A DNA stretch of 63,473 nucleotides, filler included, from Hausera hauseri (Eukaryota), in assembly GCA_046269625.1 (NCBI GenBank). It is 12 parts of 12 records of this genome, joined end to end, with 100 filler letters (N's around TTAATTAATTAA, not from the genome) between each part and the next. Parts side by side here need not be neighbours in the genome. Positions count along the whole stretch, not along the records: positions 56,641 to 63,473 come from JBJURY010060662.1; 11 more parts are not named here. The stretch is one strand, 5' to 3'. Within the stretch, counting starts at the first letter, position 1. Each line of letters opens with the position of its first letter. Shown in pieces: positions 60,140 through 61,913 of this stretch. Both the position numbers and the translations under genes were made by a program. The notes below the pieces were generated by a model that made no database searches, was not told the DNA's origin, and saw only the letters and a list, made by a program, of their open reading frames with translations.

Positions 60140-61255
60140 TTACATCGTATATTCGTCTTTCTGTGATGTCTGGTCTGTTGTGTCTGTTCTCTTGTTGTTT
60201 TGGAAGTCTATTACGAGTTTCCCCCTTCGGGTGGCATCTGCTTTGTTTTCGTCGTCGGAGGATTCTTCGGAAGAGGCTGTCTTCCTTGTTGTTGTTCGTT
60301 GGGTTTCCTGACCTGTTACACTGTCGGTAGCGATGTCGCCGGCCGCTCTTGTTTTCTCCTTGGGAGATTCACTTTGCTGTTTGGTGTCTCGTCTTCGTTT
60401 CCGGATTGTCTTTCTGCTATCTTTGGTCGTGAAACATTCTTCGTCGGTGTCAACGTCTTTGTCTTCCACGTTTGGAAGTGAGTCGCTTTTCTTTGCAGGT
60501 GGTGTTTCTTGACTGTTTGCTGAATTTTTTTCTTCACTTTCTTGGGCTTTCTCGTTTTGCTCTTCGTTGTGGCTTTGTGTTGTTTCTACGGGCCGTTCTA
60601 CTGTCTGTTCTTTTTGTATCTTTTTGTTCCCTTTCTTCTGGGGGCATTGGTTTTCCCAATGGGTATCCAGTCCGCAAATTTGACACTGCGTTCTGCGTCC
60701 GGGTAGCGTAATCCATATGCGAAAGTGTTTGTCTTCATTGTCTGAGGCCTTGACTGTCAGGTAATGTGGTATCTCTTTCTCCGAACGGTATAGGAAGTGC
60801 CATTTGTCATTCGCAGATTTTATTGCTCGGACCTCTGCTTTGTCGTCTCCTGTAATACTCACCGCTATCTTGCGGACCGTATCAGGGTGTATGGTTGGGG
60901 GTAAAAAATGTAGGGTCCCCTTCACATTTTCCTTTTCTAGGTGTTCAACCACAAAAGTTGTTTGTGGATCTTTTACTTCGTGACGTCGGCCATGCAGGTT
61001 ATTATAATGTTTTAAATGAGCCGCCGTTGATAAAGTTGCGAACCACTTATGTTGGTTCGACAACTTATACAAAGTTGCGACCCCGCTGGGGTCTACGCCT
61101 AGTGGGCCCACAAGGAACGCCGCCATATAGGCGTACGTCACGCGAGCCGCACCAGGACCTGACACAGTAATAACAAGCGTACCTTTTCGGTGAATTGTCC
61201 CTCCTTCGAGCTCCTTTTCCCAGTCGATGATGATGCTTGGTGTTTCCGTTGTCAT
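60140..61255 (-). CDS. ORF1: nucleic-acid-binding protein with a CCHC knuckle
   Basis: Intact 371-aa ORF; CQICGLDTHWENQC followed by a charged low-complexity tail. Confidence 0.9.
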   Translation of the reverse strand: MTTETPSIIIDWEKELEGGTIHRKGTLVITVSGPGAARVTYAYMAAFLVGPLGVDPSGVATLYKLSNQHKWFATLSTAAHLKHYNNLHGRRHEVKDPQTTFVVEHLEKENVKGTLHFLPPTIHPDTVRKIAVSITGDDKAEVRAIKSANDKWHFLYRSEKEIPHYLTVKASDNEDKHFRIWITLPGRRTQCQICGLDTHWENQCPQKKGNKKIQKEQTVERPVETTQSHNEEQNEKAQESEEKNSANSQETPPAKKSDSLPNVEDKDVDTDEECFTTKDSRKTIRKRRRDTKQQSESPKEKTRAAGDIATDSVTGQETQRTTTRKTASSEESSDDENKADATRRGKLVIDFQNNKRTDTTDQTSQKDEYTM

Positions 61256-61290
61256 GATGAAGAATCAGAATAATAATATCCAAACACATA

Positions 61291-61343
61291 AAATCTTTAG
61301 TAAAAGGCGAAAGATTTATACGCTGTGAAGAGAAACCAGAGTA
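61291..61343 (-). ncRNA. U5: U5 snRNA gene, 5' part only (interrupted)
   Basis: ACUCUGGUUUCUCUUCACAGCGUAUAAAUCUUUCGCCUUUUACUAAAGAUUU, then element sequence where CCGUGGAGAGG should follow. Confidence 0.95.
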
Positions 61344-61360
61344 GCTATACAGGGCGTGGC

Positions 61361-61437
61361 TTATGTGGCATAGTAATTCTCGTGGTATATTCTTTGGCTG
61401 TTAAACAGCTGTATATTTTACTAAGAAAATTTACAAA
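61361..61437 (-). promoter_or_regulatory. U5 upstream region (candidate PSE), identical to 63397-63473
   Basis: A 77-nt block is identical between the two U5 copies, while the roughly 20 nt next to the start differ. Confidence 0.6.
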
Positions 61438-61913
61438 ACAACAAGTGATTAAACATTGATTACACATTGGGCTCCCGAAAATAACTGCATATTTTTCTAT
61501 GTTGAAATAGTCGGCAGCTGTAAAGTGAACAGAATGACTGCTTTTTATTTGTTAAAATGCATATAACATTCTTGCCCTTAGAATGAAGAAGCTGTTGCGT
61601 GTTGTTTATTCCCCTGCAATATTGAGCCTCCGTTGATTTACTTTGCATAGTTACTGCCCTTAGCACACAAACCAAATGAAACTTGACTTAATTCATTTAT
61701 TAACTAGGTACCTCCTTGACTCAAGTGTTAATTTTATTTCTTTGCTGGTTAAAACATACTTCCCAGCGTGACTTTATAATAGCCAAACCATTTCCTGTAG
61801 AAAGCACGCGCGTTATTTTTAAGATGTTAATACAATCCGGCTCTATACTATTTAGGCGAAATTTCGGCAACCTTCATAAGATTGAAAATCAAGATTCGAG
61901 AGACAGACGCCTT

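Follow-up and report, generated by a model that had tools for sequence, protein, structure and literature searches.

Background

As set out in PMC4640811, the snRNA-targeting elements reported so far are only Keno and Utopia, which use U2 genes, and Dada, which uses U1 and U6 genes. Keno is a member of the Tx1 clade found in U2 snRNA genes (PMC4494074, PMC4640811, PMC6136364), and the legend of Fig. 3 in Kojima 2015 gives U5 snRNA among the targets of the same clade (PMC4494074). The discussion of that paper also holds that a transcribed target makes a promoter of the element's own needless, and cites R2, which resides in 28S rDNA and relies on the promoter of its host gene (PMC4494074); PMC6136364 and PMC8869645 otherwise provided background only. 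A literature search conducted outside most subscription papers found no published test of the use of an snRNA promoter by a Tx1 element. R2 itself has a single ORF with a restriction-like endonuclease, and its RNA is a Pol I transcript which is released uncapped by a ribozyme.

Cap hypermethylation is strictly dependent on assembly of the Sm ring. The Sm-class snRNAs are described as Pol II transcripts which are capped co-transcriptionally and whose transcription is driven by an element near -55, while Sm-ring assembly and cap hypermethylation are both cytoplasmic steps (PMC2582628). The cap rule is not absolute, as mRNAs with hypermethylated caps have been noted (PMC4117793). A capped and polyadenylated read-through RNA headed by an snRNA, similar to the RNA proposed below, is described in Integrator-depleted C. 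elegans, where these sn-mRNAs differ from our case in that they arise via lost 3' processing, keep the whole snRNA and, for U1 and U2, are untranslated (PMC6390993).

Results

The window, i.e. the whole 63,473-nt stretch of Hausera hauseri DNA that was analysed, consists of short contigs chained via N spacers, and the element lies on the minus strand of the last contig (about 56661-63473). The sole intact U5 snRNA gene found by Rfam on this contig (63379-63265, minus strand; RF00020, 94.7 bits, E 2.2e-15) is located 2035 nt upstream of an interrupted U5 copy in the same orientation. This interrupted copy retains U5 nt 1-53, through loop 1 (61291..61343, minus strand), which are identical to the intact copy in the alignment. 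The window family is represented by a single 5' junction, after U5 nt 53, and its 3' junction is lost in this copy. No AUG and no Sm site occur in the retained U5 part; the intact gene has its first ATG at nt 75 and its Sm site at nt 90. The first-pass annotation had stated that the Sm site and the 3' end of U5 are separated from the start site, and this was borne out, as both are absent from the interrupted copy and no Sm-type site (RAU4-6GR) is present in positions 57400-61290. There was also no consensus 3' box in 57400-61290, searched with a vertebrate pattern.

The interrupted copy is preceded by an upstream block (61344..61437, minus strand) which aligns with the flank of the intact gene. 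It had been called perfectly conserved; of the 94 bases that can be compared, this is true for the 75 furthest from U5, which are identical, but not for the proximal 19 nt next to it, which differ by one deletion and three substitutions. The comparison runs from the gene out to -94, the point at which the window ends, with the enhancer region near -220 lying outside it. The block covers the position (about -55; PMC2582628) at which a proximal sequence element would be expected. At least 93 nt of the upstream flank of the gene are kept, and we therefore rejected the possibility that this is a plain U5 retrocopy or a template-switch chimera of snRNA and LINE.

Following the junction, a T-rich leader of 35 nt (61256..61290, minus strand) is succeeded by ORF1 (60140..61255, minus strand), which encodes 371 aa with a CCHC-type knuckle and has 143 relatives at E<=0.001 in a search with residues 1-215. 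The nearest named relative of ORF1 is from the slug Arion vulgaris (48% over 173 aa). The knuckle motif (C-x2-C-x4-H-x4-C) is conserved among relatives and matches Pfam zf-CCHC_3 weakly (E 0.013), falling short of the curated cut-off, and Pfam searches of the ORF1 family gave no domain beyond this weak knuckle. A family of 143 representatives (P0189-P0330) is characterised by the first 185 residues of ORF1. For the N-terminus we aligned 24 of the best relatives whose matches reach it, and 23 of these 24 begin no more than 10 residues from the window ORF1 methionine; judged by this alignment the N-terminus of ORF1 is complete and 61255 is its true start. With the 5' end of ORF1 uncut, there is thus nothing but 35 nt between U5 and the start in this copy.

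ORF2 (57356..59981, minus strand; Pfam and tblastn) encodes an AP endonuclease (Exo_endo_phos, E 4.1e-13) and a reverse transcriptase (RVT_1, E 4.6e-37) of the L1/Tx1 type. Its nearest named relative is from the snail Bradybaena similaris (46% over residues 1-500), and the best match of its profile among solved structures is human L1 ORF2p (E 1.9e-158), with R2 at E 3.9e-37. Together with the slug relative of ORF1, the snail relative points to a mollusc as the probable host. Full-length relatives of ORF2 have about 1120 aa, and tblastn with these showed two frameshifts near 57460-57420 and an end of homology at 57356, so that about 250 aa of the ORF2 end are absent from this copy, as are the 3' UTR and the 3' half of U5. 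With two frameshifts and an ORF2 which breaks off at 57356, this LINE copy is dead. About 270 nt beyond the break, on the same strand, there is what looks like an exon from a xanthine dehydrogenase / aldehyde oxidase gene (56984..57088, minus strand; phmmer, aldehyde oxidase E 9.5e-07, xanthine oxidase E 2.4e-05), and the joining of element and host exon at the break may come from a deletion or from assembly. The contigs of sequencing run X1 contain many divergent pieces of the element body when compared with 56661-61290 (620 records), some of which continue beyond the frameshift site; their depth is about 37-211 and falls to 3-6 above 60845, a dip which carries no weight as the records were filtered. 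A look-up of RNA data for 57300-61500 listed no entries, which speaks neither for nor against expression. On the plus strand of the neighbouring contig at 53149-56588 there are ORFs, among them one that matches endonuclease VII weakly, and the ORF sequences give the impression of a polymerase-bearing mobile element.

With an N-terminal AP endonuclease followed by RT in ORF2, and a separate CCHC-bearing ORF1 upstream, this is a U5-lodged LINE of the L1/Tx1 type, real but dead. It shares with the U5-targeting Tx1 family of Kojima 2015 (PMC4494074), compared by the figure legend only, that both are LINEs of this type tied to U5 genes. With Keno, as described in those papers, it shares the AP-type endonuclease and RT, the orientation, and an insertion point that lies within a Pol II snRNA gene and ahead of its Sm site; the target of Keno is U2 rather than U5, and the comparison is by description. 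The window element is not Keno, as its junction is with U5 rather than with U2. In an RT tree of 78 rows (FastTree, midpoint root, containing no named Tx1 reference), the window clade forms a long branch beside loci associated with U1 and U2, with a support of 0.42 for its own node, and is apart from those U2-inserted loci whose 3' junction lies at U2 nt 38.

The distance from the junction to the ORF1 ATG is exactly 35 nt, and that from the Rfam U5 nt 1 to this ATG is 88 nt, confirming the earlier statement of 35 nt and a leader of about 90 nt with loop 1, which lies in the included U5 nt 1-53. The AUG context was as the annotation had claimed, with an A at -3 of the ORF1 ATG, and a U at -3 of an AUG at 61289 which is out of the ORF1 frame. 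This upstream AUG opens a 74-codon ORF with a weak start context (61065..61289, minus strand), which overlaps the start of ORF1, and ORF1 therefore needs leaky scanning, without re-initiation; the overlapping upstream ORF would be predicted to reduce ORF1 output. It had also been suggested that the AUG at 61289 may pair back onto the CGUAU of U5. In a fold of 106 nt this pairing was indeed present in both the minimum-energy and the centroid structures, but the fold was no more stable than shuffled sequences (z -0.76, with 49 of 200 shuffles as good), and in a fold of 146 nt the upstream AUG paired with ORF1 sequence instead (about 0.65). Sequestration of the upstream AUG in a U5 hairpin was rejected, since the pairing changes with the length of the folded piece.

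The Rfam U5 model aligns the leader on to about model position 85, and the A of the ORF1 start is nt 89 counted from U5 nt 1, with the Sm site of the intact gene beginning at nt 90. When the leader was anchored to U5 nt 54-89, its score was reached by 148-193 of 3000 mononucleotide shuffles and 257-403 of 3000 dinucleotide shuffles, and by 102-165 of 2415 matched 35-mers from the window. There was no signal in the likeness of the leader to two other U5 genes, and the corresponding test for a decayed snRNA in the leaders of 15 comparators gave none below 41/500. A leader consisting of decayed U5 is thus unsupported, the likeness being borderline against shuffles and without signal for the two other U5 genes. 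A 7-nt match between the start of the leader and the 3' flank of the intact U5 gene was put down to chance (295/20000 shuffles in a prefix test, 700/2000 for a local match).

DNA of the close clade of the window element (P0003-P0033) was not found in metagenome contigs (30 parts scanned out of 64, with the top 80 of 537 loci), genome contigs (63 loci) or viral contigs. The comparators used are therefore distant relatives, 27-39% identical at ORF2, which are outside the window clade and mutually non-independent, several being from one family. Among the metagenome loci, which are the best 80 of 537, 18 have a 5' piece directly before ORF1 that comes from U2 (11), U4 (3), U1 (2) or 5S (2), and four further loci were obtained from the 63 genome-contig loci (L082, L085, L088 and L091). 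The leader set comprises the 16 loci with an intact ORF1 start (14 of the 18 from the metagenome and two from genome contigs), with L003, L006, L053, L078, L085 and L091 excluded; in these six the first long ORF is 243-779 nt from the junction, and they look like broken ORF1s with an earlier start. The 16 leaders measure 17, 37, 49, 53, 71, 75, 76, 86, 98, 108, 109, 117, 117, 127, 150 and 178 nt, so the 35 nt of the window element are shorter than 15 of them. Judged from these lengths, a short leader is nothing special to the window element and is common to relatives in U1, U2, U4 and 5S genes.

The 16 leaders contain four ATGs where 24.9 are expected, a number as low being seen in 0/5000 shuffles, with the reservation that taking the first ATG as the start drops some in-frame ATGs by construction. 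There is no upstream AUG in 13 of the 16 comparators, and 14 of the 16 have a purine at -3 of ORF1. The longest leader (178 nt), that of the 5S-inserted relative L038, is also AUG-free, and its host gene gives no Pol II cap; the AUG-poor leaders show scanning, not choice of promoter.

There are signs in these comparators that snRNA sequence lies on the element RNA. In one assembly, interrupted U2 genes share 70 nt upstream with intact U2 genes, and two element families have in common a change in their U2 heads which none of the eight intact U2 starts listed shows; another change is shared by two coral elements, and one family has brought a U4 head, which in L007 starts at U4 nt 1, to a U5 gene as well as to sites other than U4. 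Such travelling heads are the expected outcome if the RNA begins at the snRNA start, and hence favour transcription from that start; template switching onto the snRNA could also give snRNA heads. The loss of an AUG in the U4 heads was dropped as a sign of selection, since the Rfam consensus carries the same letter as the heads. The U4-headed family is located after U5 nt 80 in L007 (2529-2760) and is also present in L006:355-400, and at its 3' end it has U5 nt 40-122 in L025 (1422-1470, 6981-7064) and U4 nt 53 onward in L013 (6252-6385); genes of both U4 and U5 thus seem to serve as its targets.

Two further observations concern MAG records. One bacterial MAG record (L082, L084-L087, L089, L091, L096 and L098) has an animal-type U1-5S-U2 array with several LINE families in and between the genes, which is probably host DNA in the bin. 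Another (L105-L143) has a LINE in tandem about every 6.4-6.8 kb, without a match to the snRNA and 5S references used.

Discussion

We propose that in LINEs of this kind the host U5 promoter may drive a single capped RNA covering ORF1 and ORF2, a reading to which we give roughly even credence. Pol II would start at U5 +1, and as the 3'-end signal of U5 is displaced it would read through, giving an RNA with U5 nt 1-53 at its head and both ORFs further down. With the Sm site missing from this RNA its cap would remain in the m7G form, and translation of ORF1 would require scanning ribosomes to bypass the weak AUG at 61289; the U5 head on the RNA would also aid re-insertion into U5 genes by homology. 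The copy in the window could make at most the ORF1 protein and a cut ORF2.

The alternative which survives best, although we regard it as rather unlikely, is that the element has its own promoter, either as a compact initiator plus downstream element in the leader and ORF1 start or in a longer 5' UTR lost on insertion, with the U5 block being an untouched target; any insertion into a gene keeps the upstream block, used or not. The first-pass annotation had considered 35 nt too little for an L1-style internal promoter, and this stands against a long promoter of that style only: as described in PMC4748587, downstream-element promoters are found in jockey, Doc, G, I, F, SART1 and TRAS1, the stretch of jockey bound by TFIID reaches from the start site no further than about +30/+35, and the promoter of L1Tc takes up 77 nt. 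An own promoter would also suit L038, which has a similar leader in a 5S gene, and the position of the window leader below 15 of the 16 comparators makes some 5' loss possible. However, short leaders recur in the families inserted in U1, U2 and U4 genes, it would take a close coincidence for a 5' truncation to end just 35 nt ahead of an ORF1 left whole, and some snRNA heads travel along with their elements, which would not result if the promoter started downstream of the junction.

It is improbable, in our estimate, that the U5 promoter fires and its chimeric RNA product undergoes early cutting, is withheld from ribosomes or is diverted to the upstream ORF, in which case it would be at most a template for retrotransposition, with the protein coming from another transcript. 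The precedent is that of the U1 and U2 chimeras of C. elegans, capped and polyadenylated yet untranslated (PMC6390993), to which can be added the suggestion that eIF4E may be kept off the cap by the snRNA export complex (PMC2582628) and the overlap of the 74-codon upstream ORF with ORF1. The worm chimeras, however, kept the whole snRNA and several AUGs, whereas the U5 head here is without Sm site and without AUG; likewise at odds with early cutting or exclusion from ribosomes are the lack of a consensus 3' box in 57400-61290 (by the vertebrate pattern), the depletion of AUGs in comparator leaders and the purine at -3 of ORF1 in 14/16 of them. Least probable, to the point that we give it very little credence, is that the element is read within a longer host transcript, from an intron of the xanthine dehydrogenase-like gene, whose late exon lies 270 nt beyond the break on the same strand, or by transcription that runs on from the intact U5 gene, which lies 2 kb upstream in the same orientation, as this is peculiar to one locus and leaves the shared layout of the relatives unexplained, the intact U5 gene retains its own 3' end, and the exon join sits at the break and may stem from a deletion or assembly.

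Transcription from the snRNA promoter, as proposed for the U5 element, would not be peculiar to the element in the window, and the layout of its relatives suggests that promoter borrowing is probably a common habit of LINEs landing in small-RNA genes. It would resemble the host-promoter dependence of R2, which for our element is a proposal, and would differ in that the host promoter here is a Pol II promoter and would supply a cap. More tentatively, and with some doubt on our side, the LINEs which target Pol II snRNA genes might as a class be parasites of promoter and cap, with an m7G-capped, Sm-less transcript that is translated, and the window lineage might be a near-minimal example. On this class reading, an insertion that precedes both the Sm site and the first snRNA AUG would turn an snRNA gene into an mRNA promoter, and the transcript would escape snRNP maturation.

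Conclusions

The value of the case is in a testable mechanism and not in the locus, the element being a dead copy of a kind already in print. If true, the mechanism would show an snRNA promoter that in nature produces an mRNA which is translated, and would offer a compact test of what commits a capped Pol II transcript to an snRNP or an mRNA fate, with the Sm site, upstream AUGs and 3' processing as the candidate factors. The short leaders of snRNA-targeting LINEs would be accounted for as well.
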